This document shows positions 1-7,515 of a DNA stretch of 7,515 nucleotides, one piece after another (position 1 is the stretch's first letter; each line of letters begins with the position of its first letter). Both the position numbers and the translations under genes were made by a program. The stretch is from a virus (taxonomy: Duplodnaviria; Heunggongvirae; Uroviricota; Caudoviricetes). The stretch is taken from positions 1 through 7,515 of the IMG/VR virus record IMGVR_UViG_2526164690_000027, one strand, 5' to 3'. The notes beneath the pieces were generated by a model, which was not told the DNA's origin, searched no databases, and saw only the letters and a list, made by a program, of their open reading frames with translations.

Positions 1-1
1 A

Positions 2-1591
2 TACGATGCTCCGGATCCGCGCATTAAACAGCTGGCGCGCCGCAGTACAGTGACGCCGGGCGGGGCTGCCTGCAGATATAACGATATTATTCCGGCTGAC
101 CACTGTCTGCATGATGTGCAGGATATGAGTACGCTGAATCATCCGAAGGCAGACCTGAGCAAAGGGCAGTACGGCTGTGTCGGCCAGGGCTTACATATTG
201 CCAAAAAACTGCTTCCGTATATCCCGAATAACGCGGGGATCCTGCTGGTACCATGCTGTCGTGGTGGTTCTGCATTCACCCAGGGCGCTGAGGGGACATT
301 CAGTGCGGACACGGGGGCTAGCCATGATTCGGCACGCTGGGGTGTGGGTAAACCGTTATATCAGGACCTGATTGCGCGCACCAAAGCTGCATTACAGAAG
401 AACCCGAAAAATGTGTTGCTGGCGGTGTGCTGGATGCAGGGAGAGTTTGACATGAGCGCCGCCACCCACGCACAGCAACCTGCGCTGTTTACAGCCATGC
501 TGACACAGTTTCGTGCTGACCTCTCCGTGTTTAACGCGCAGTGCCATGGTGGCAGTGCTGCAGATGTGCCGTGGATTTGTGGTGACACGACGTATTACTG
601 GAAAAATACATACGCTACCCAGTACGACACCGTGTACGGCGGGTATAAAAACAGGGAGAGTGAGGGCGTTTATTTTGTGCCCTTCATGACAGACGGTAAC
701 GGTGTCAATACCGCCACTAACGCGCCGGCAGAAGATCCGGATATTCCGGCATCAGGATATTACGGTGCGGCATCGAGAACGAATGGAAACCAGGTATCAT
801 CAAACCGCCCGACACATTTCAGTTCATGGGCGCGCAGGAGCATTATTCCGGATCGTCTGGCAACCGCTATTCTGAACGCAGCCGGGCGCACCTCAGCCTT
901 CATCAGTGGTAAGGCACCGGAAATCAAACCCTCGCCCGGCGGCAACACGCCATCGGGTCCGTCTGCAGATACGTCCGTTCGCACAATCTCCCTGCTGCCG
1001 GCAGCCGGAGAGGCTGCTGCGCAGGGCTGGAGCATTAAGGATGGCGGAATTCAGTTGTCGGGTGGTGTATTTAAGATCGCCAAGCAGAGCAATAAAACCT
1101 GGTCCCTGACGCATCCGGTGGATGACGCAATTACCCTGCTGACACAGGGCGGCAGACTGACCTGTAAGTTCCGCCTGTCAGGCGCACTGACCAACAATCA
1201 GTTCGGGCTGGGGATTTATCTGTATACGGATGCTCCCGTTCCTGATGGTGTGGCGATGACGGGTACCGGTAATCCGTTCCTGATGTCGTACTTCACTCAG
1301 ACCACTGACGGCAGAGTGAATCTGATGCATCACAGGAAAGCCGGAAACACGAAGCTGGGGGAGTTCGGCGATTACGGTAACGACTGGCAGACGCTGGAGC
1401 TGGTGTTCACCGCCGGCAGTGCCACGGTTACTCCGAAACTGAATGGAGTGGCTGGCCCGGCATTCCAGGTTATAAAAGACAGTCTGACACTGGGACTGAA
1501 TGCGCTGACGCTGACGGATGTTACAAAAAATGCAGCGTATGGCGTTGAGATAGAAAGTCTGGTGCTGGAGATAAATGCACCGGCAGCATAA
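2..1591 (+). CDS. 5'-truncated phage moron esterase, SASA/SGNH-like (NanS-p-like putative sialate O-acetylesterase) with a C-terminal beta-rich domain
   Basis: Frame is open from position 2 to TAA at 1589-1591 with no in-window upstream stop; the GTG at 50 is only the first in-window start, so the gene continues upstream. Translation contains ...VPCCRGGSAF... and ...CWMQGEFD..., resembling the GG and W-x-QGE-x-D blocks of sialate O-acetylesterase (SASA) domains. A Gly/Thr/Asn-rich C-terminal domain follows. Position directly upstream of the holin matches where NanS-p-type esterases sit in EHEC prophages. Functional call is inference from memory. Confidence 0.55.
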   Translation, partial: YDAPDPRIKQLARRSTVTPGGAACRYNDIIPADHCLHDVQDMSTLNHPKADLSKGQYGCVGQGLHIAKKLLPYIPNNAGILLVPCCRGGSAFTQGAEGTFSADTGASHDSARWGVGKPLYQDLIARTKAALQKNPKNVLLAVCWMQGEFDMSAATHAQQPALFTAMLTQFRADLSVFNAQCHGGSAADVPWICGDTTYYWKNTYATQYDTVYGGYKNRESEGVYFVPFMTDGNGVNTATNAPAEDPDIPASGYYGAASRTNGNQVSSNRPTHFSSWARRSIIPDRLATAILNAAGRTSAFISGKAPEIKPSPGGNTPSGPSADTSVRTISLLPAAGEAAAQGWSIKDGGIQLSGGVFKIAKQSNKTWSLTHPVDDAITLLTQGGRLTCKFRLSGALTNNQFGLGIYLYTDAPVPDGVAMTGTGNPFLMSYFTQTTDGRVNLMHHRKAGNTKLGEFGDYGNDWQTLELVFTAGSATVTPKLNGVAGPAFQVIKDSLTLGLNALTLTDVTKNAAYGVEIESLVLEINAPAA

Positions 1592-1599
1592 TAAAAAAA

Positions 1600-1633
1600 G
1601 AGCCAGCGACTGACCTGAAAGAAGACGCTGGCT
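1600..1633. repeat. Stem-loop element copy 1 (8-bp stem AGCCAGCG / CGCTGGCT, 17-nt loop), A-tract on 5' side
   Basis: AGCCAGCG at 1601-1608 is the exact reverse complement of CGCTGGCT at 1626-1633. Preceded by AAAAAAAG, so on the minus strand the hairpin is followed by a T-run. Lies 9 bp after the esterase stop. Confidence 0.3.
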
Positions 1634-1747
1634 AAAAGGCCTTATATGTTTGTAGAGACTTATTTTTCACAGACAGCAATGATGCCTGTCAATATATTAT
1701 CAATATGCGGATTGTTTCAGTTACAGATGCTTTATTAAGGAAAAAAC

Positions 1748-1782
1748 AGCCAGCACTGACTTTCGGTGGAGAGGTGCTGGCT
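1748..1782. repeat. Stem-loop element copy 2 (9-bp stem AGCCAGCAC / GTGCTGGCT, 17-nt loop), paralogous to copy 1
   Basis: AGCCAGCAC at 1748-1756 pairs with GTGCTGGCT at 1774-1782. Same arm core (AGCCAGC...GCTGGCT) and ACTGAC at the start of the loop as copy 1. Preceded by GGAAAAAAC. Confidence 0.3.
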
Positions 1783-1956
1783 CAGAAGGATAGTTGGATT
1801 TCACATGATACTTATGCCTGGCGGTATATTTTCTGACAGACAGTGACGGGTGTTGTCAAGATATTGTGTCATTTATAACCTGAATCAGGGGAGGCCGGAA
1901 TGTTATCTGGCATTTTTAGCAGAGCCTGAATGCCATAATCACGGCTCCCGGCGTTG

Positions 1957-1995
1957 GCCGTCAGTGGGTGACACTGGCGGCTTTTTTGTTTTTCT
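1957..1995 (+). terminator. Rho-independent terminator immediately upstream of the holin (tR'-like position)
   Basis: GC-rich 10-bp stem: GCCGTCAGTG at 1957-1966 pairs with CACTGGCGGC at 1972-1981 (one G.U pair), 5-nt loop GGTGA, followed by TTTTTTGTTTTTCTTT at 1982-1997. Holin start codon is ~40 bp downstream. Confidence 0.6.
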
Positions 1996-2037
1996 TTACT
2001 TTCATTTTCTGTCGGCGGTGACGGAGACATACATCAG

Positions 2038-2244
2038 ATGGAAAAAATCACAACAGGTGTGTCATACACCACGTCAGCGGTGGGGACGGGATACTGGTTA
2101 CTGCAGCTGCTGGACAAAGTCTCTCCGTCCCAGTGGGTGGCAATAGGTGTGCTGGGAAGTCTGCTGTTTGGCCTGCTGACGTATCTGACTAACCTGTATT
2201 TCAAAATCAGAGAGGACCGTCGTAAGGTGGCGCGGGGAGAGTAG
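2038..2244 (+). CDS. S: Class II holin / pinholin (phage 21 S21-like)
   Basis: 68-aa ORF with two predicted TM segments: weakly hydrophobic TMD1 [15 protein letters not shown] and TMD2 [18 protein letters not shown]. Charged C-terminus [13 protein letters not shown]. Strong resemblance to the S21 pinholin from memory. Located after a terminator and paired with a SAR endolysin. Confidence 0.85.
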
Positions 2245-2499
2245 TCGATGAATAAACAATACGAACTGGTTGTAAAATGAATATTTCTAACTGAAAAAAC
2301 GTTCCATGAGGTAAGAAAAGGTCACAGGCAATCAATAACAGGACGTGATGAAAGACCCTTGCATTTGTGCGCTTTCTCTTTAGATAGCAGCAGATACTGA
2401 AAATCTGAGTTGTCGGGGAGTCAGGGATACAGCTGTGCAAGAGTTGGTCATTGTGATTCCATTGAAATCCTGTATGCCATGAAGGGCAGGATTTTATGG

Positions 2500-2814
2500 C
2501 TACCTGAGCTTTGGTGATAGTAAGTTGAAAATTCGCATTTTTTGCTGACATGCGTAACGAGAATCCCATAAACAGGGAGGACTTAATTCTTCATTAACCC
2601 ATGCGTTGATATTATGTTTCAGCCGTTGAAGCATCAGCGGTGTTAATGTTGTGGTAATAATATCCAGCGTTTTATGTGAGATCTTACCGTAAGGGTCTGC
2701 AAGAATGCTGCTTGTTGCTTCGTTATTATCTGCCATCAGAAGAAGTAACTCTGATTTAACGTTTTCTGTCATTAGTTGTAAAAATCTTCTGCGCAAACTT
2801 TCTTTACTGTTCAT
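2500..2814 (-). CDS. Hypothetical 104-aa protein encoded antisense to the lysis genes within an AT-rich insert (possibly YdfR/DUF1327-like by position; unverified)
   Basis: A 104-codon open frame on the minus strand inside a visibly AT-rich segment, where stop codons should be frequent, so chance ORFs of this length are unlikely. Hydrophilic, helix-like composition. Start ATG (plus 2812-2814) has only a weak SD-like GAAG upstream and an in-frame TAA immediately 5', so the start cannot extend further. In E. coli K-12 Qin, ydfR occupies the equivalent holin-endolysin slot (recalled, not checked). Confidence 0.4.
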   Translation of the reverse strand: MNSKESLRRRFLQLMTENVKSELLLLMADNNEATSSILADPYGKISHKTLDIITTTLTPLMLQRLKHNINAWVNEELSPPCLWDSRYACQQKMRIFNLLSPKLR

Positions 2815-2931
2815 TTATATGGCTTCATTTGTTGTAATCTGCTGCGTCTCAAGGGATATGTTTATGAGAGCGACCATGAGTGTTTGATTATATACCTAAC
2901 ATATCAAGGGATTAGAAATCGATAAATCCCC

Positions 2932-3465
2932 ATGAACGAAAAAATAAAATACGGCCTGTCGGCTGCCGTTCTGGCGCTGATTGGTGCAGGTGCTTCTGCG
3001 CCTGAAATCCTCGACCAGTTTCTGGATGAAAAGGAAGGTAACCACACCACGGCATACCGTGATGGTGCGGGGATCTGGACCATCTGCCGTGGTGCCATTC
3101 TGGTGGATGGTAAGCCTGTTATTCCTGGCATGAAGCTGTCAAAGGAAAAATGCGACCGGGTTAATGCCATCGAACGTGACAAGGCGCTGGCATGGGTGGA
3201 GAAAAACATCCGGGTGCCGCTGACCGAACCCCAGAAAGCGGGGATCGCGTCATTCTGTCCGTACAACATTGGCCCCGGTAAGTGCTTCCCGTCGACGTTT
3301 TATAAACGAATTAATGCAGGCGATCGAAAAGGTGCCTGTGAGGCGATTCGCTGGTGGATTAAGGACGGTGGCAGAGACTGCCGTATTCGTTCAAACAACT
3401 GCTACGGTCAGGTATCCCGTCGTGACCAGGAGAGCGCGCTGGCGTGCTGGGGTATCGACAGATAA
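2932..3465 (+). CDS. R: SAR endolysin, T4-lysozyme-like muramidase (GH24), phage 21 R21 / P1 Lyz type
   Basis: 177-aa ORF. N-terminal Gly/Ala-rich signal-anchor-release segment YGLSAAVLALIGAGASAP. Catalytic E-x8-D-x5-T triad in EGNHTTAYRDGAGIWT. Downstream blocks (...INAGDRKGACEAIRWW..., ...ESALACWG) match the R21 family from memory. No convincing SD upstream of the ATG. Confidence 0.9.
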   Translation: MNEKIKYGLSAAVLALIGAGASAPEILDQFLDEKEGNHTTAYRDGAGIWTICRGAILVDGKPVIPGMKLSKEKCDRVNAIERDKALAWVEKNIRVPLTEPQKAGIASFCPYNIGPGKCFPSTFYKRINAGDRKGACEAIRWWIKDGGRDCRIRSNNCYGQVSRRDQESALACWGIDR

Positions 3466-3559
3466 GCAGAATATTTTGCTGAAAAATAAGGCATGGCCAC
3501 GCGGGCGGATAACATGAAATCCTGCGAACTGGCAAAATGTAAGTGAATAAAAGTAAAAA

Positions 3560-3594
3560 CCCCGTTTGTTGGCAGCAAGCGGGGTTTTGTTTTT
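3560..3594 (+). terminator. Rho-independent terminator downstream of the endolysin
   Basis: CCCCGTTTG at 3560-3568 pairs with CAAGCGGGG at 3576-3584 (9 bp, one G.U pair), 7-nt loop, followed by TTTTGTTTTT at 3585-3594. An A-tract (3555-3559) on the 5' side makes it potentially bidirectional. Confidence 0.55.
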
Positions 3595-3659
3595 ATGGCA
3601 GTAAGCTATGGGAGGCTGCCTTGATTGATTTTAGCAAACTGATTAGGGAGTTGCGACTC

Positions 3660-3755
3660 ATGATTAGTCAATTACCAAACTGGAAATTTTTGCTGGTCTG
3701 GAGCATCCCTTTTTTATGGGTAGTATCCCAGTTAATTGTGGCAATTAAGGGGTAG
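3660..3755 (+). CDS. Small hydrophobic protein, 31 aa (MISQLPNWKFLLVWSIPFLWVVSQLIVAIKG), single predicted TM helix
   Basis: ATG at 3660 is preceded by SD AGGGAG (3645-3650) with a 9-nt spacer. Stop TAG at 3753-3755 lies 2 nt before the next ORF start. This is the 3' part of track ORF 3543..3755, whose 5' part overlaps the terminator hairpin. Confidence 0.35.
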   Translation: MISQLPNWKFLLVWSIPFLWVVSQLIVAIKG

Positions 3756-3757
3756 CT

Positions 3758-3889
3758 ATGTCAGACAAACTCATAACGCCGGCAAAGGTCCTGTGTGTGA
3801 TTGTCGGTATTTCATTTTCACTAATGCTGGTTGCTCTTTTTCTGTCCCTCGCCTGGGTGATGTTGTCTTCGTCGGGGCTGCTGGGGTGA
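3758..3889 (+). CDS. Small membrane protein, 43 aa (MSDKLITPAKVLCVIVGISFSLMLVALFLSLAWVMLSSSGLLG)
   Basis: ATG at 3758 is preceded by SD AAGGGG (3747-3752) with a 5-nt spacer. Below the ORF-track length cut-off. One long hydrophobic segment. The N-terminal TM segment resembles the Rz TM segment at both protein (KVLCVIV vs RVLCVVIIV) and nucleotide level. Confidence 0.4.
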   Translation: MSDKLITPAKVLCVIVGISFSLMLVALFLSLAWVMLSSSGLLG

Positions 3890-3891
3890 CA

Positions 3892-4008
3892 GTGACTGAT
3901 GACATCAGCAGAGCGCTGGCTTTTGCTATTAAGTGGGTGGCTGTTGGTATTGCTGTGTCTCCGATGCTGTATGGGCTGGCAAAACTGGTCATTGCGCTGA
4001 AATCGTGA
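3892..4008 (+). CDS. Small hydrophobic protein, ~38-40 aa (..TDDISRALAFAIKWVAVGIAVSPMLYGLAKLVIALKS); start ambiguous (GTG 3886 overlapping the upstream stop as GTGA, or GTG 3892)
   Basis: Frame matches the 3' part of track ORF 3736..4008. GGGG at 3882-3885 can serve as SD for GTG 3892. Paralogous to the next small ORF (shared motif RA[LM]AFAI[KR]xVA). Confidence 0.3.
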   Translation: MTDDISRALAFAIKWVAVGIAVSPMLYGLAKLVIALKS

Positions 4009-4019
4009 ACTTTAAAAAG

Positions 4020-4106
4020 ATGAGTGCTGAACTTATTCGGGCAATGGCATTTGCCATTCGTATTGTGGCCATTGCTGTTCTGGTCTGGGCAATCCGTTGG
4101 TGGTGA
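4020..4106 (+). CDS. Small hydrophobic protein, 28 aa ([28 protein letters not shown]), paralog of the preceding small ORF
   Basis: ATG at 4020; stop TGA at 4104-4106 lies 1 nt before the Rz ATG at 4108. No clear SD. About 9/20 identical plus conservative residues against ORF 3892-4008 over the core. Confidence 0.3.
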
Positions 4107-4107
4107 T

Positions 4108-4602
4108 ATGAACCGTGTTCTGTGTGTGGTGATTATTGTCCTGCTGGTAGCCTGTGGTGTGCTTAGTCTGGGGCTGAATCATTACCGCGATAACGCCATC
4201 ACCTACAAAGCGCAGCGCGATAAAAAAGCCAGAGAGCTGGAGCTGGCAAACGCAACTATTACTGATATGCAGGTGCGCCAGCGCGATGTTGCTGCGCTCG
4301 ATGCAAAATACTCGAGGGAATTAGCCGATGCGAGAGCTGAAAATGAAACTCTGCGCGCTGATGTTGCCGCTGGTCGTAAGCGCCTGCGGATCAACGCCAC
4401 CTGCCCCGGTACCGTGCGTGAAGCCACCGGCACCTCCGGCGTGGATAATGCAACCGGCCCCCGACTGGCAGACACCGCTGAACGGGATTATTTCATCCTC
4501 AGAGAACGGTTGATGACAATGCAGAAGCAGGTGGAAGGGGCACAGGACTATATCCGCACTCAGTGTACTAAGCAGGCTTTTTATTATCCGGAGGATGTAT
4601 GA
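4108..4602 (+). CDS. Rz: Rz i-spanin (inner-membrane spanin subunit)
   Basis: Translation from ATG 4108 ([39 protein letters not shown]...[23 protein letters not shown]...) aligns closely with lambda Rz from memory: N-terminal TMD, coiled-coil periplasmic domain. The in-frame upstream ATG at 4024 would add a non-homologous 28-aa extension that overlaps the small ORF, so it is rejected. Confidence 0.9.
4328..4513 (+). CDS. Rz1: Rz1 o-spanin (outer-membrane lipoprotein spanin subunit), embedded in +1 frame within Rz
   Basis: 61-aa [64 protein letters not shown]. Lipobox VSAC, proline-rich mature part. Close match to lambda Rz1 from memory. SD GAGGGA at 4314-4319. Confidence 0.85.
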
Positions 4603-4823
4603 AGAAATTACAGGTAACGGTAAAACCTTTTCAGGGAACAATTCCGTTCCGTGTTTTGCAACATGGCCGTGTTCTGCTTGAAGAGGTGTTCAGAGGTAAA
4701 TGCACTGAATGTTATTCACGAACATATGAAGTGAATGCCACGCATGAAGAATTCACCGTTGAGTGTGTGATGAATACTGATAAATGCCGAATGGTATCCG
4801 CTGAATTACAGCCAGTGTGTTGA
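4599..4823 (+). CDS. Hypothetical 74-aa Cys-rich protein (CxxC plus three further Cys), translationally coupled to Rz
   Basis: ATG at 4599 overlaps the Rz stop (ATGA). GGAGGA at 4590-4595 is directly upstream (short spacer). Five Cys including C-T-E-C. No recognisable homology from memory. Confidence 0.5.
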
Positions 4824-5191
4824 GCGACCTTATTATCCATGCGCGGTATTGTCGCCGTATTCCTGCATTAACAGAGACCGCAGCCCGACAGGGAGACTCC
4901 TCTGCGAGAGTGTGCGGGGATAATCAAAAACGATACACACCGGGGTTTACCGCGTAAACGGAGCGCGGCGTTCTCCCCTCATGGTCGCCCGTCCGGTGCG
5001 ATGGTGGAAGAAACTGGAATCTGTTCAATAAAAAAACTGCCGTGTTGGAGTCACAGCAGTAATGTACTGATTGGGTAGAAGATTATTATTGTTATGCTTT
5101 ATTTTTATTCTATATGGCTGATTATTTCAATTCGGAATTAATACAGCTAATGTCTGTGAGTTTTTATAAATTCAGCAATATAAAGAAATAG

Positions 5192-5419
5192 TTATATGAA
5201 CAGCCATCGCAGAGCATACTGTGTATCATTCTTTTTTATAGTCAACTGACGGGCATATTTTATGTCTGCTGCCAGCTCCCGGCGGCAAGATTCAATGACC
5301 CACGCAGAAAAATTTTCTGAACCTTTCTGGTCAAGAGCGATGTTAATTTGTTCAATCATCTGGTTTGGAAATCGGATGTTGCGGGTTGTTGTTCTGCGGG
5401 GCCGGTTTTTCGATGACAT
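5192..5419 (-). CDS. Small DNA-binding-like protein, YlcI-like (DUF3950 / ribbon-helix-helix-like), 75 aa, divergent from the HNH gene
   Basis: Minus-strand ORF with SD-like AGAGGA ~7 nt upstream of the ATG (plus 5417-5419). N-terminal basic stretch then RNIRFPNQMIEQINIALDQKG...FSAWVIESCRREL, recalled as the YlcI-type small protein found next to terminase genes in E. coli cryptic prophages. Family assignment is from memory. Confidence 0.55.
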   Translation of the reverse strand: MSSKNRPRRTTTRNIRFPNQMIEQINIALDQKGSENFSAWVIESCRRELAADIKYARQLTIKKNDTQYALRWLFI

Positions 5420-5460
5420 TTTCTTTCCTCTGGTGACAAGCTATATGGCGAGGATTTTAC

Positions 5461-5826
5461 ATGGCTGTGCTTCGTACGTTACCGGGCAGAATCAAAACTC
5501 TGAATACCCGGCGGGTGAATGTCCTGAAGGGTGAACAGCGTCGGGTCAGTGGCAGTGCACGTGTTTCCCTCAAGCGTCGTATCTGGCTGAGGGATGCCGG
5601 GCAGTGCTGTCTCTGTGGTCGTGTGGTTGACCTCTGTGACAGTGAACTCGATCACCGAATTGCACTTCAGTTCGGTGGTGGTAATGAGGAGACGAATCTC
5701 TGGACGCTCTGTACCGAATGCCATCGACAAAAGTCTGCTCGTGAAGTGGCGGGTGGTATGCCGGACCCGACGCTGCCGGAGGTGTCCGGAGGTCATGGCA
5801 GGGCAGACGATATCATCGGACTGTGA
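5461..5826 (+). CDS. HNH endonuclease, terminase-associated (HK97 gp74-like)
   Basis: 121-aa ORF with SD AGGA 6 nt upstream. Classic HNH architecture: C-C-L-C ... D-H ... N-L-W ... C-T-E-C-H. Located immediately upstream of the cos-like region and terS, as in HK97-like phages. Confidence 0.85.
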   Translation: MAVLRTLPGRIKTLNTRRVNVLKGEQRRVSGSARVSLKRRIWLRDAGQCCLCGRVVDLCDSELDHRIALQFGGGNEETNLWTLCTECHRQKSAREVAGGMPDPTLPEVSGGHGRADDIIGL

Positions 5827-5900
5827 CCCGCCCCGGGGGGGGGATCATCCGGCGAAAAAAACGATCCGCCCCGGACACCGCCCCCCGTCTCATGCAGAAG
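5827..5900. other. GC-rich segment with a G9 homopolymer; candidate cos cleavage (cosN-like) region
   Basis: CCCGCCCCGGGGGGGGG at 5828-5843, then GATCATCCGGCG, an A7 run, and CGATCCGCCCCGGACACCGCCCCCCG. Lies between the HNH and terS genes, where cos sits in HK97-like phages. The exact nick sites cannot be determined from sequence alone. Confidence 0.25.
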
Positions 5901-5917
5901 AAAAAATTCCTGTTCAG

Positions 5918-5939
5918 GCCAGTTAACATGTTAACTGGC
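5918..5939. repeat. 22-bp perfect palindrome GCCAGTTAACATGTTAACTGGC (followed by 8-bp palindrome GCCCGGGC at 5941-5948)
   Basis: Sequence 5918-5939 equals its own reverse complement (verified base by base). The flanking pair 5917/5940 breaks the symmetry. Confidence 0.9.
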
Positions 5940-6044
5940 TGCCCGGGCATTTTTCGGTTTTTATCTTTATTATTCAGTTTGTTGTGCGAAAAAAATGTTA
6001 ACTGGCTTTTTCAGCAAATGTTAACCAGGCAGCAGTTAACATTT
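5918..6044. promoter_or_regulatory. Array of GTTAAC-centred half-sites (consensus CAGTTAACAT); putative terminase small-subunit binding region (cosB-like) or other dimeric-protein operator
   Basis: Five GTTAAC cores at 5922, 5930, 5997, 6020 and 6035. ATGTTAACTGGC at 5995-6006 is identical to the right half of the palindrome. ATGTTAACCAGGC at 6018-6030 and GCAGTTAACAT at 6032-6042 form an inverted pair with a 9-bp spacer. An AT-rich spacer (5950-5994) separates the palindrome from the other sites. Confidence 0.4.
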
Positions 6045-6116
6045 GCGGCATGAGACGCCGGGAAAAATGGGCTGAACCATACCCGGCTGAGTGCGTTATG
6101 GACCCGGGAGGAGGCT

Positions 6117-6680
6117 GTGCTGACAACGCAAAAACGAAAATTTGCGCTGGCGCTCATGTCCGGGAAAAACAAAACAGCGTCAGCCATTGCCGCTGGTTAT
6201 TCGGCGAAGACCGCCAGGGTTAAAGGCTCGCAGCTGGCAAAAGATCCGGAGGTGCTTGCGTTTATAGCCCGTAAACAATGCGAGACGGTGGAGGTGGATG
6301 AGGTTCCTGTTTACCGGCAGAAAAAATCAGAGCAGGAGGATAAACCCCGTCGCCGTGAGGCGGCTGCAATACCACAGCCGGACGAAAACAATCCGGAGAT
6401 GCCACCGTCCGCGGTGATGTCTCCTGGTATTGAATATATGGAGGATGGTCTTCCCGATCCGGTGAAAGCGATGGGGCGTCTTCTGGTGGAGAACATTAAT
6501 ACCGACCCCAGGCTGGCGCTGGATGCGGCTTATAAGCTGGCGCAGTTCACGCACCATAAAAAAGGGGATGCCGGTAAAAAATCGGCAAAAGGTGACGCGG
6601 CGAAAAAAGCGGCTAACCGTTTTGCGGTGCCACCACCACCCCGCCTGGTGGTGAATAATGATAATGAGGGCAACGAATGA
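6117..6680 (+). CDS. terS: Terminase small subunit (Terminase_2-like, N-terminal HTH DNA-binding domain)
   Basis: GTG start at 6117 with SD GGAGG at 6107-6111. N-terminus ...KRKFALALMSGKNKTASAIAAGYSAKTARVKGSQLAKDPEV... matches the conserved small-terminase DNA-binding motif (AGYS..TA...GS.L) from memory. Stop overlaps the terL start (ATGA at 6677-6680). Confidence 0.85.
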   Translation: MLTTQKRKFALALMSGKNKTASAIAAGYSAKTARVKGSQLAKDPEVLAFIARKQCETVEVDEVPVYRQKKSEQEDKPRRREAAAIPQPDENNPEMPPSAVMSPGIEYMEDGLPDPVKAMGRLLVENINTDPRLALDAAYKLAQFTHHKKGDAGKKSAKGDAAKKAANRFAVPPPPRLVVNNDNEGNE

Positions 6681-7515
6681 TACCTGTGTGGAGCACGGCC
6701 TGCCCGGACTGGGCAGAGCGCCTGAAAAAGGGGCTGTCGATTATTCCGGCTCCGATTTATCCGGAGCAGGCTGCACATGCACTGGCGATTTTTAAACAAC
6801 TGCGGATTGTGGATGCACCGGGTAGCCCGACATTCGGGGAGTCCTGTGCACCGTGGGTGTTTGACCTGGTGGCGGCCCTGTTTGGCTCCTACGATGCGCA
6901 GACCGGTGTTCGCCATATCAAGGAAGTGTTTATCCTTATCCCCAAGAAAAACAGTAAGTCCACGCTGGCCGCGGGGATCATGATGACGGCGCTGTTACTG
7001 AACTGGCGGCAGGCGGCGGGCTACACCATTCTGGCCCCGACCGTGGAGGTGGCGGCTAACGCCTTCAACCCTGCCAGGGATATGGTACGACGGGACGATG
7101 ATCTGGATGACCTCTGTCAGGTGCAGACACATATCCGGACCATCACCCATCGGGTGACGGACACCACCCTGAAGGTGGTGGCAGCCGATCCGAATACGGT
7201 GTCCGGTATCAAGTCCGTGGGGACACTGATTGATGAACTGTGGCTGTTTGGCAAGCAGTACAAGGCGGAAGACATGCTACGTGAAGCCATCGGCGGGCTT
7301 GCCTCCCGTCCGGAAGGGTTTGTGGTGTATACGACCACCCAGTCGAATGAAACCGCCCGCCGGGGTGTTCAGACAGAAACTGCAGTATGCCCGGGATGTC
7401 CGTGACGGCAAAATTCATGATCCGCACTTTCTGCCGGTGATTTTTGAGCATCCTCCTGAAATGGTGGAAAGCGGGGCTCATCTGCTGATGGAAACCTCGC
7501 CATGGTTAACCCGAA
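6677..7515 (+). pseudogene. terL: Terminase large subunit, N-terminal ATPase domain; reading frame broken by an apparent +1 frameshift near 7349-7353; continues in the 0-frame to the window end (3'-partial)
   Basis: Frame-2 ORF 6677-7405 (242 aa) contains a deviant Walker A ...ILIPKKNSKST... but is far too short for a TerL. Its last 17 codons (TARRGVQTETAVCPGCP) look non-protein-like. The 0-frame is open from 7230 to the window end and reads protein-like from 7353 (PPAGVFRQKLQYARDVRDGKIHDPHFLPVIFEHPPEMVESGAHLLMETSPWLT). Junction is at the GAAA tract 7349-7352. Could be a real mutation or a sequencing error. Confidence 0.55.

Follow-up and report, generated by a model that had tools for sequence, protein, structure and literature searches.

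What are the two small, adjacent open reading frames (ORFs) that stand between the endolysin gene R and the spanin gene Rz in IMG/VR virus record IMGVR_UViG_2526164690_000027 (Caudoviricetes), and what might their products do? The window examined here is the whole stretch of 7,515 nucleotides (nt) at positions 1 to 7,515 of that record, and these 7.5 kb are 100% identical to a prophage of Escherichia coli O103 strain RM8385. An earlier note on this DNA had described the two ORFs as diverged tandem duplicates whose peptides are under selection, and had offered a toxin-like function as an alternative to a role in lysis. The observation of a related pair stands; its interpretation needs correction on how the pair arose and on the toxin idea. 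Our best overall explanation, drawn from sequence comparison and held with confidence evenly poised between belief and doubt, is that the ORFs are real paralogues within a shuffled string of peptide genes in the lysis operon and have an accessory role in lysis. Among candidate functions we rank an accessory lysis modulator first, a membrane add-on with another function second, and a relic or coupling ORF third. The two ORFs, here called C' and D, are as follows.

3886 or 3892 to 4008, + strand: ORF C', a C-type family member without the N-terminal head (phrog_1115, E = 3e-24)
4020 to 4106, + strand: ORF D, a short-form D-type family member of 28 amino acids (aa) (phrog_4493, E = 3.8e-6; Hessa ΔG -0.9)

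Both ORFs are present in the window as described, C' from GTG 3892 to TGA 4006-4008 and D from ATG 4020 to TGA 4104-4106, and the two DNA strings quoted for their similarity were located at 3913 and 4041, 128 nt apart, with 27 of 44 positions identical. The shared peptide motif holds in its core, R-A-x-A-F-A-I-[KR]-x-V-A; as first written it was slightly off, since C reads I-S-R-A and D reads L-I-R-A. Alignment places the similarity beyond that of random hydrophobic sequence. The BLOSUM62 local score (Smith-Waterman) was 47, compared with 21.5 +/- 4.3 for 5,000 composition-preserving shuffles, none of which reached 47 (z = 5.9). C' and D both match phrog_1115, 4493, and 3246, with long forms of the family matching the PHROG profiles at 1.6e-32 and 6.4e-15, and a profile built from C types only met one built from D types only at an hhalign probability of 98.5% (E = 4e-15, 32 columns). 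Natural intermediates and chimeras (P0104, P0107, P0062, and P0095) bridge the two tail types: P0062 joins a C tail to the short head of D, P0095 joins a D tail to the head of C, and P0104 has a tail of C length with the RWW of D at its end. Judged from these alignments, C' and D are anciently diverged paralogues of one unnamed family of single-helix membrane peptides.

The family is covered by PHROGs 1115, 4493, and 3246 and has no Pfam or NCBIfam model. PHROGs is the only catalogue that already lists C' and D; it gives neither function nor context and divides one family into three. A concatenated C+D query against 5.8 billion proteins returned 102 matches, every one labeled "hypothetical", with almost all of them coming from E. 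coli and Salmonella. Profile searching of 1.84 billion representatives yielded only 30 clusters, some of them bridging both tails, and extended the family at ~40% identity to Yersinia, Klebsiella, Citrobacter, and Achromobacter. Two further small ORFs, A and B, precede C' in the window and show no profile relationship to the C/D family. ORF A had been considered as a third diverged member on account of its leader SKLIRELRLM and C-like tail (z = 3.6), and was rejected at an hhalign probability of 0.3%.

How did the two paralogues come to lie side by side? The phrase "diverged tandem duplicates" is apt in so far as homologous paralogues do stand in tandem, and misleads in so far as it implies duplication followed by divergence in place. 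Over 109 of 117 nt (93%), C' is identical to codons 11-49 of the canonical 48-aa C, whose first 10 codons are replaced in C' by the end of ORF B. From the FAI codons of the AFAI motif (TTT GCC ATT) to its stop, D matches long-form D at 100% identity; only its short N-terminus differs. Given these near-identities to forms in other phages, and with synonymous sites between C' and D near saturation, the divergence of C and D is old and the assembly of the pair recent. These comparisons therefore point to a C/D pair put together recently by recombination, through module shuffling between phages rather than local duplication, with breakpoints located in the conserved AFAI codons and where stop and start codons meet. 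C and D are also found singly in the same slot after the endolysin gene in other phages (R-C-B-Rz and R-D-Rz). More than 20 different arrangements of the R-Rz gap were seen; among loci found through C or D, R-C-B-Rz is the commonest and R-A-B-C'-D-Rz is the window type, and R-D-Rz, R-C-D-Rz, R-B-D-Rz, and R-C-B-C'-D-Rz also occur. Family members pair in tandem elsewhere as well, as a full-length C followed by a short D (L317) and as two copies in an unrelated metagenomic phage (L381).

Other traffic through the same gap was noted. In R-B-Rz phages, a gene for a 189-aa protein lies between R and B (L302 and 12 similar loci, at about 1505-2074), an insert which shows that the gap takes larger cargo too. 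ORF B accompanies C in two unrelated lysis cassettes, and in a sample of loci collected through the endolysin some phages have only A or only B ahead of Rz.

The window copies are better understood against the full-length form of the family. When the frame was followed upstream past the annotated ATG in nine contexts, it gave a protein of 50-62 aa with a basic head, M-x-x-Y-K-R-I-L-L-R-L-T-M-K-N-G-L-E-x-D-A-P (M..YKRILLRLTMKNGLE.DAP), followed by a short acidic linker and one hydrophobic helix that starts A-x-A-F-A-I-[KR]. The helix ends in ...SPMLYGLAKLVIALKS (C type) or ...VLVWAIRWW (D type), intermediates exist, and the C-termini of members are KS or RWW, not charged tails. An AlphaFold model of the 48-aa C form is a single continuous helix (pLDDT 85). 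By the Hessa scale, B and D score as clear transmembrane (TM) helices. C' and D both lack the 20-30 residue head and are essentially helix only. A headless start, MS[AT][ED][LF]IRA, is found repeatedly with either tail, in a conserved ATG context of its own; the D of the window is of this type. Long forms carry two conserved in-frame methionines 12 codons apart (M1 and M13; M13 is conserved in >=90% of sequences). The stretch that separates them contains basic residues, and GAGG falls within codons 9-11 (e.g., L306 3191-3373). Holins are known for a dual-start motif, and the double methionine of the long forms recalls that of holin/antiholin pairs, whereas the window copies have no dual start.

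The start of C' is a matter of annotation. GTG 3886 (40 aa, in a GTGA overlap with the stop of B) or GTG 3892 (38 aa) is more likely than the CTG at 3853 chosen by PGAP, whose version (WP_042004856.1, 3853-4008) shares 37 nt with B. C versions of 48-104 aa come from other gene callers, and the PHROG profiles (67-90 positions) seem to carry spurious N-terminal extensions from mis-called starts.

Is the peptide itself what selection has kept? The earlier note had argued so from a motif conserved over diverged DNA, and the codons bear this out. Over 28 aligned codons of C' and D, the proportion of synonymous differences (pS) was 0.63, near saturation, against a nonsynonymous proportion (pN) of 0.39, and 6 of 9 identical residues are written in different codons. 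The dN/dS estimate among homologues, run here as pN/pS computed pairwise among distinct alleles, likewise stayed under 0.5 when read in the annotated frame (C 0.22, D 0.35). The alleles came from ~370 loci in IMG/VR and public assemblies; outside the codons fixed by the DNA search pattern (10 of them in C), the ratios were 0.33 and 0.49, respectively. All copies are intact and open to the same stop (C 237/237, D 139/139; 376/376 together). Variable sites are distributed over the three codon positions as 16/7/27 in C (p = 0.002) and 13/5/18 in D (p = 0.03), with the excess at third positions. As read from the alignments, the strongest sign of a selected peptide is the conservation of the head across genera: this non-hydrophobic segment is the best-conserved part, maintained through synonymous changes (CGA/AGA, TTG/CTG, ACT/TCT).

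That constraint could in principle belong to another gene at the same place, namely a 73-aa minus-strand ORF (3771-3992), a +1-frame ORF (3899-4000), or a larger multi-TM gene that has since broken up, an account to which we give next to no credence. In every allele the antisense frame is free of stops, with a pN/pS of 0.39-0.50, its third positions coinciding with those of the sense frame; an open antisense frame with low ratios is to be expected because it lies opposite a hydrophobic gene. The sense frame as annotated has the lowest pN/pS for both C and D, and the +1 frame stands at 0.7. The antisense ORF, moreover, spans the B-C' junction, which is unique to this architecture, has no promoter, and shows by eye no Shine-Dalgarno (SD) sequence upstream of its ATG at 3992. 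Both candidates were thus ruled out as true genes by pN/pS and absent start signals. For the broken gene one may point to rare B-C read-through fusions (P0008, P0009, P0012, P0014, and P0020), but these are single-contig variants, and each ORF of the window has its own start and SD. Since phages differ in the order of the modules (C-B versus B-C') and each module can stand alone, A-D were rejected as pieces of one degraded multi-TM gene.

If these are real genes, their setting bears on what they do. The window is part of a lambdoid prophage and runs from the end of its late-regulatory/moron region into the lysis and packaging genes. The lysis context claimed for both ORFs is present, with endolysin R upstream and the spanins Rz/Rz1 downstream; the operon order is pinholin S, endolysin R, terminator hairpin, A, B, C', D, and Rz/Rz1. 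Besides C' and D it comprises the following.

2038 to 2244, + strand: S, class II (phage 21-type) pinholin, 68 aa (Pfam PF04971, E = 1.3e-32; RefSeq "class II holin family protein")
2932 to 3465, + strand: R, lysozyme-type endolysin, 177 aa (Pfam PF00959, E = 7.6e-24; RefSeq "lysozyme")
3556 to 3598, + strand: terminator-like hairpin between R and the small ORFs (A-run, CCCCG...CGGGG, 15-bp stem, T-run)
3621 or 3660 to 3755, + strand: ORF A, small membrane peptide (phrog_6632, E = 1.3e-12, over residues 28-69 of a 70-aa ORF)
3758 to 3889, + strand: ORF B, 43-aa single-TM peptide (phrog_4906, E = 4.5e-21; Hessa ΔG -3.5)
4108 to 4602, + strand: Rz, i-spanin, 164 aa (Pfam PF03245, E = 7.9e-50; phrog_13 "Rz-like spanin", E = 5.6e-77)
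4328 to 4513, + strand: Rz1, o-spanin lipoprotein in the +1 frame of Rz (61-aa ORF, lipobox VVSAC, Pro-rich tail)

R is inferred to be a signal-anchor-release (SAR)-like enzyme from its weakly hydrophobic N-terminal segment MNEKIKYGLSAAVLALIGAGASAPE together with work that identifies Shiga toxin (Stx)-phage endolysins of its type as SAR endolysins (PMC8136144). ORF A probably encodes 44 aa from TTG 3621, with GGGAGG 5 nt upstream, or 31 aa if ATG 3660 is used; its start codon and SD were checked in the sequence. Among copies of ORF B, 204/218 stop at the same position, and the other 14 are a one-residue-longer form from cassettes with a GH108 endolysin. The Rz1-equivalent ORF of related loci matches PF06085 (Rz1). 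RefSeq calls B, C', and D hypothetical proteins.

How the small ORFs are expressed narrows the choices further. The hairpin has a predicted ΔG of -24.2 kcal/mol (z = -4.95; 0/200 shuffles as stable). In 9/9 representative loci the family gene is preceded by a comparable hairpin that ends ~20-60 nt before the start, a distance too short to accommodate a sigma-70 promoter. No promoter-like site was found on the + strand from hairpin to Rz (3560-4200), even at 8/12 matching positions. With no promoter of their own and a terminator upstream, A-D would be transcribed only by read-through; presumably, Q-antiterminated late transcription passes the hairpin and reaches the small ORFs. Translation would be linked as closely. 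The intergenic gaps are 2 nt (A-B), 2 nt or an overlap (B-C'), 11 nt (C'-D), and 1 nt (D-Rz). B ends in GGG-G-TGA, so that GGGGTGA is both SD and coupling site for C' (3880-3894), and D ends in TGG TGG TGA (RWW-stop), which forms the SD GGTGGTGA for Rz (4095-4110). The GTGA overlap of C' repeats the coupling seen at the Rz start where B abuts Rz, and in 7/7 architecture representatives the stop of the last small ORF lies -4 to +7 nt from the start of Rz. Ribosomes may thus be passed along the chain A, B, C', D, and Rz. The highly conserved RWW-stop tail, which also appears as IRWW-stop on an unrelated A-like peptide (L303), is kept because it doubles as the Rz SD, and the C-terminal residues are therefore under a dual constraint. 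The locus is a clean example of shuffled gene modules of less than 100 bp in which the last codons carry the ribosome-binding site of the next gene.

Comparable hairpins stand upstream of members in L294, L306, L373, L376, L377, and L381-L383, even within a baseplate operon. Most of the window's hairpin falls within the 129 nt that directly follow R, a segment ~89% conserved in many Stx phages. The element could be a terminator, a 3'-untranslated region or small RNA element, or a recombination landmark.

This expression pattern bears directly on the proposal that the hydrophobic ORFs are type I toxins, that is, membrane toxins held in check by an antisense small RNA. The ldr, ibs, and hok arrays consist of small hydrophobic peptides in tandem, and C' and D resemble them, and the zor arrays, in being short hydrophobic paralogous neighbors (28 and 38-40 aa, single-helix model). 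They differ from such arrays in being translationally coupled and in having no antisense RNA gene, promoter, or long structured leader. With gaps of 1-11 nt inside one late operon there is no room for an own promoter or a long 5'-untranslated region, and the repeated unit is a bare ORF rather than a toxin-plus-small-RNA locus of several hundred bases. The scan for antisense promoters that the earlier note had suggested, carried out on sequence, found no site of at least 9/12 on the minus strand over 3890-4110; sites at 8/12 occurred only at chance level, with a total below shuffle expectation. Rfam, including all curated type I antitoxin RNAs, had no match anywhere in the window at E <= 1, and the genes are co-oriented with the phage late genes at all of the ~370 loci. 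The toxin idea, lacking a transcription unit of its own, is therefore dropped as very improbable.

Close coupling to Rz also invites the thought that the headless C' and D have ceased to function as proteins and survive as relics, coupling ORFs that bring ribosomes and an SD to Rz. Both have lost the conserved 20-30 residue head, C' was born of a recombination that removed its native start, and the RWW-stop codons of D double as the Rz SD, with the same tail on the unrelated A-like peptide; the codon-position bias of D, too, is not significant outside the pattern-fixed codons. Against a relic stand the stability and the constraint of these forms. The MS[AT][ED][LF]IRA head, found with both tails and with its own ATG context, marks a stable subfamily rather than a one-off truncation. 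Every copy is intact, the annotated frame keeps pN/pS under 0.5, 609/5426 complete E. coli genomes have the C'-D pair at >=80% coverage, and a mere coupling ORF has no need of a conserved helix. We regard the relic account as doubtful.

The reading we prefer is that A-D make up one version of a shuffled series, one to four genes long and coding for small membrane peptides, that fills the gap from R to Rz/Rz1, and that the peptides, seated in the inner membrane, modulate lysis by acting on pinholin triggering, SAR-endolysin release, or spanin action, and so on its timing or efficiency. We hold this functional part tentatively, a little short of even confidence. Genomic context is its chief support. 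In a sampling based on the endolysin alone, 76/76 loci with R and Rz have one or more small TM ORFs in the gap between the two genes; in 39/76 C or D is among them. The C-B pair recurs behind a GH108 endolysin in an unrelated cassette; P0104 (49 aa) adjoins Rz at a distance of 1 nt in a Yersinia remnant; the stop of P0117 overlaps the start of an anchor-bearing lysozyme gene; and in L381 two tandem members are followed by a holin and an endolysin. Lysis cassettes make up 5/8 context types, for which a rough binomial P of 1.5e-4 was obtained under the assumption that 8% of junctions are lysis-related.

Several observations weigh against this reading. The endolysin-based sample consists of close relatives of the window R only (94-99% identity). 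Members also lie between the spike and sheath-initiator genes of two myovirus baseplate operons, one of them from Achromobacter, after tail-fiber genes, and in L376, where no lysis gene is near. Fourteen members had no Pfam holin match at E <= 10, and Pfam scans revealed no similarity to a named holin, antiholin, releasin (DUF2730), or spanin family. The literature searched (by accessions, peptides, lysis cassettes, and Ribo-seq of enterohemorrhagic E. coli) holds no mention of these proteins. At the level of the peptides, C' and D could be inactive, the best-conserved part being missing. While the best TM window of D has a ΔG of -0.9, the C stretch is marginal at +3.4 kcal/mol (Hessa). Ratios of pN/pS of 0.3-0.5 speak for only moderate constraint, the position bias of D is not significant by itself outside the constrained codons (p = 0.24), and one antisense frame is open with similarly low ratios.

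The same contexts admit a moron-like cargo, in which a mobile unit of hairpin plus small gene settles at late-operon junctions and encodes a membrane peptide with a role other than lysis, such as superinfection exclusion at the inner membrane (as with HK97 gp15) or modulation of host membrane physiology. Morons have been defined as extra DNA of divergent GC content with their own promoter and a downstream terminator, expressed from the repressed prophage, and HK97 gp15 is a small inner-membrane moron protein within the tail operon that acts in superinfection exclusion (PMC3594210). The A-D block is like morons in its variable presence, lower GC content (0.46, compared with 0.54 for R and Rz), and small membrane product. 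Its presence and composition vary between close relatives, the hairpin accompanies the gene, and members occur in the baseplate region, after tail-fiber genes, and at other late-operon sites. The block nevertheless lacks the defining promoter and downstream terminator: even at a permissive threshold there is no promoter for the prophage state, only ~20-60 nt separate hairpin and start codon, and the terminator lies upstream, with the last ORF running directly into Rz. Neither C' nor D has similarity to gp15/YebO, no PADLOC-DB defense model was matched at E <= 1 by A, B, C, D-long, or D-short, and lysis-cassette contexts are in strong excess. We consider such cargo possible yet distinctly less probable than an accessory lysis role.

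Returning to that role, does the family resemble known lysis accessory proteins? Antiholins (lambda S107, phage 21 S71, P2 LysA, and P1 LydB) and the Mu releasin gp25 are, like the family, small inner-membrane proteins, encoded in or next to holin, endolysin, and spanin genes on the late transcript; they share no sequence kinship with C'/D, and some C/D family members, unlike them, lie outside lysis cassettes. The Mu releasin has 99 aa, with an N-terminal TM domain and a 73-aa cytoplasmic DUF2730 domain, and its family is encoded within five genes downstream of the endolysin and acts with SAR endolysins (PMC9239132). The C/D family, in contrast, comprises proteins of 28-62 aa with no DUF2730 and with the helix at the C-terminal end. 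The features of holins, namely a profile match, a charged basic C-terminal tail, and a dual start, are absent from C'/D, as are the lipobox and soluble domain of spanins. By analogy with holin/antiholin pairs, the family might consist of unrecognized phage lysis regulators whose long and headless forms are opposing partners that together set the time of pinholin firing or SAR-endolysin exit; tandem paralogue pairs, seen independently in E. coli prophages and in the unrelated L381, would then be the functional unit. We think this more specific proposal improbable.

One comparison within the window was pursued as a lead. The C helix (KWVAVGIAVSPMLYGL; 3925-3984) aligns with the second TM domain (TMD2) of the window's own pinholin (2131-2190) at z = 4.4 (p = 0.002, uncorrected for 12 tests), and was rejected as a copy of that domain given 31/60 nt identity and no Pfam holin match; it stays a weak lead only. 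A holin-C chimera (P0094, L292) comes from just one metagenome scaffold of 554 nt, its two parts meeting at the shared AGTGGGTGGC with 10 nt of microhomology, and this likeness may be chance plus a deletion or assembly artifact.

These genes are part of the operon responsible for release of the phage and, in Stx phages, of the toxin. The block is wholly or partly present in 1697/5426 complete E. coli genomes, at as many as seven sites in one genome, with the exact C'-D pair in the 609 noted above, and many carriers are Shiga-toxin-producing strains. The C type was found in only 12/50,697 deposited phage genomes, all annotated hypothetical. Isolated phages with the same block exist (PhiR5_1, PV340545). 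Scanning 185,579 GTDB species-representative genomes for AFAI[KR][WI]VA[VI] gave 36 pattern matches, none of which was confirmed; the family is therefore absent from the representative genomes, though present in many strains. Every sampled close relative of the cassette has at least one small membrane-peptide gene immediately before the spanin gene, and no such peptide has been named, modeled in Pfam or NCBIfam, or mentioned in the literature searched. Should the peptides prove to adjust spanin expression or the timing of lysis, the well-studied pinholin/SAR-endolysin pathway would gain a component. We see the finding as a modestly interesting and experimentally tractable lead rather than a surprise.

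Two further cassettes are of note. In Yersinia enterocolitica chromosomes (L373-L375; cluster names for the P0104 locus read Y. enterocolitica/kristensenii), P0104 and an intact Rz persist in a prophage remnant with no endolysin, adjoining a housekeeping-type hydrolase gene with an IS110 transposase beyond; P0104 is listed in 1647 blocks of the collection, and the remnant is therefore widespread in Y. enterocolitica. In E. coli loci L092-L097 (about 1400-3460), a cassette of Phage_holin_8, Phage_holin_3_7, and GH108 endolysin genes continues with a 65-aa TM protein, a short-form C, a B-type peptide, and a 51-60 aa lipoprotein (phrog_7528). Ahead of the terminase gene, no spanin of the Rz family (PF03245) was called in this cassette, and the lipoprotein may be a candidate for an unusual o-spanin.

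The remaining features of the window lie outside the string of small ORFs.

50 to 1591: SASA-family esterase
2500 to 2772 (RefSeq coding sequence; longest ORF to 2814, up to 104 aa), - strand: hypothetical gene

The minus-strand ORF (2500-2814) matches phrog_1853 (E = 3.5e-47, function unknown), lies between the genes for holin and endolysin, where it points against the late operon, and occurs in only some relatives. Beyond Rz/Rz1 follow HNH and terminase genes. A 74-aa ORF at 4599-4823 (+ strand) begins in an overlap with the stop of Rz (ATGA). It aligns with the central part of the 291-position profile of phrog_2571 (E = 1e-28), which suggests that it is a piece of a longer protein or that the family is mis-clustered.

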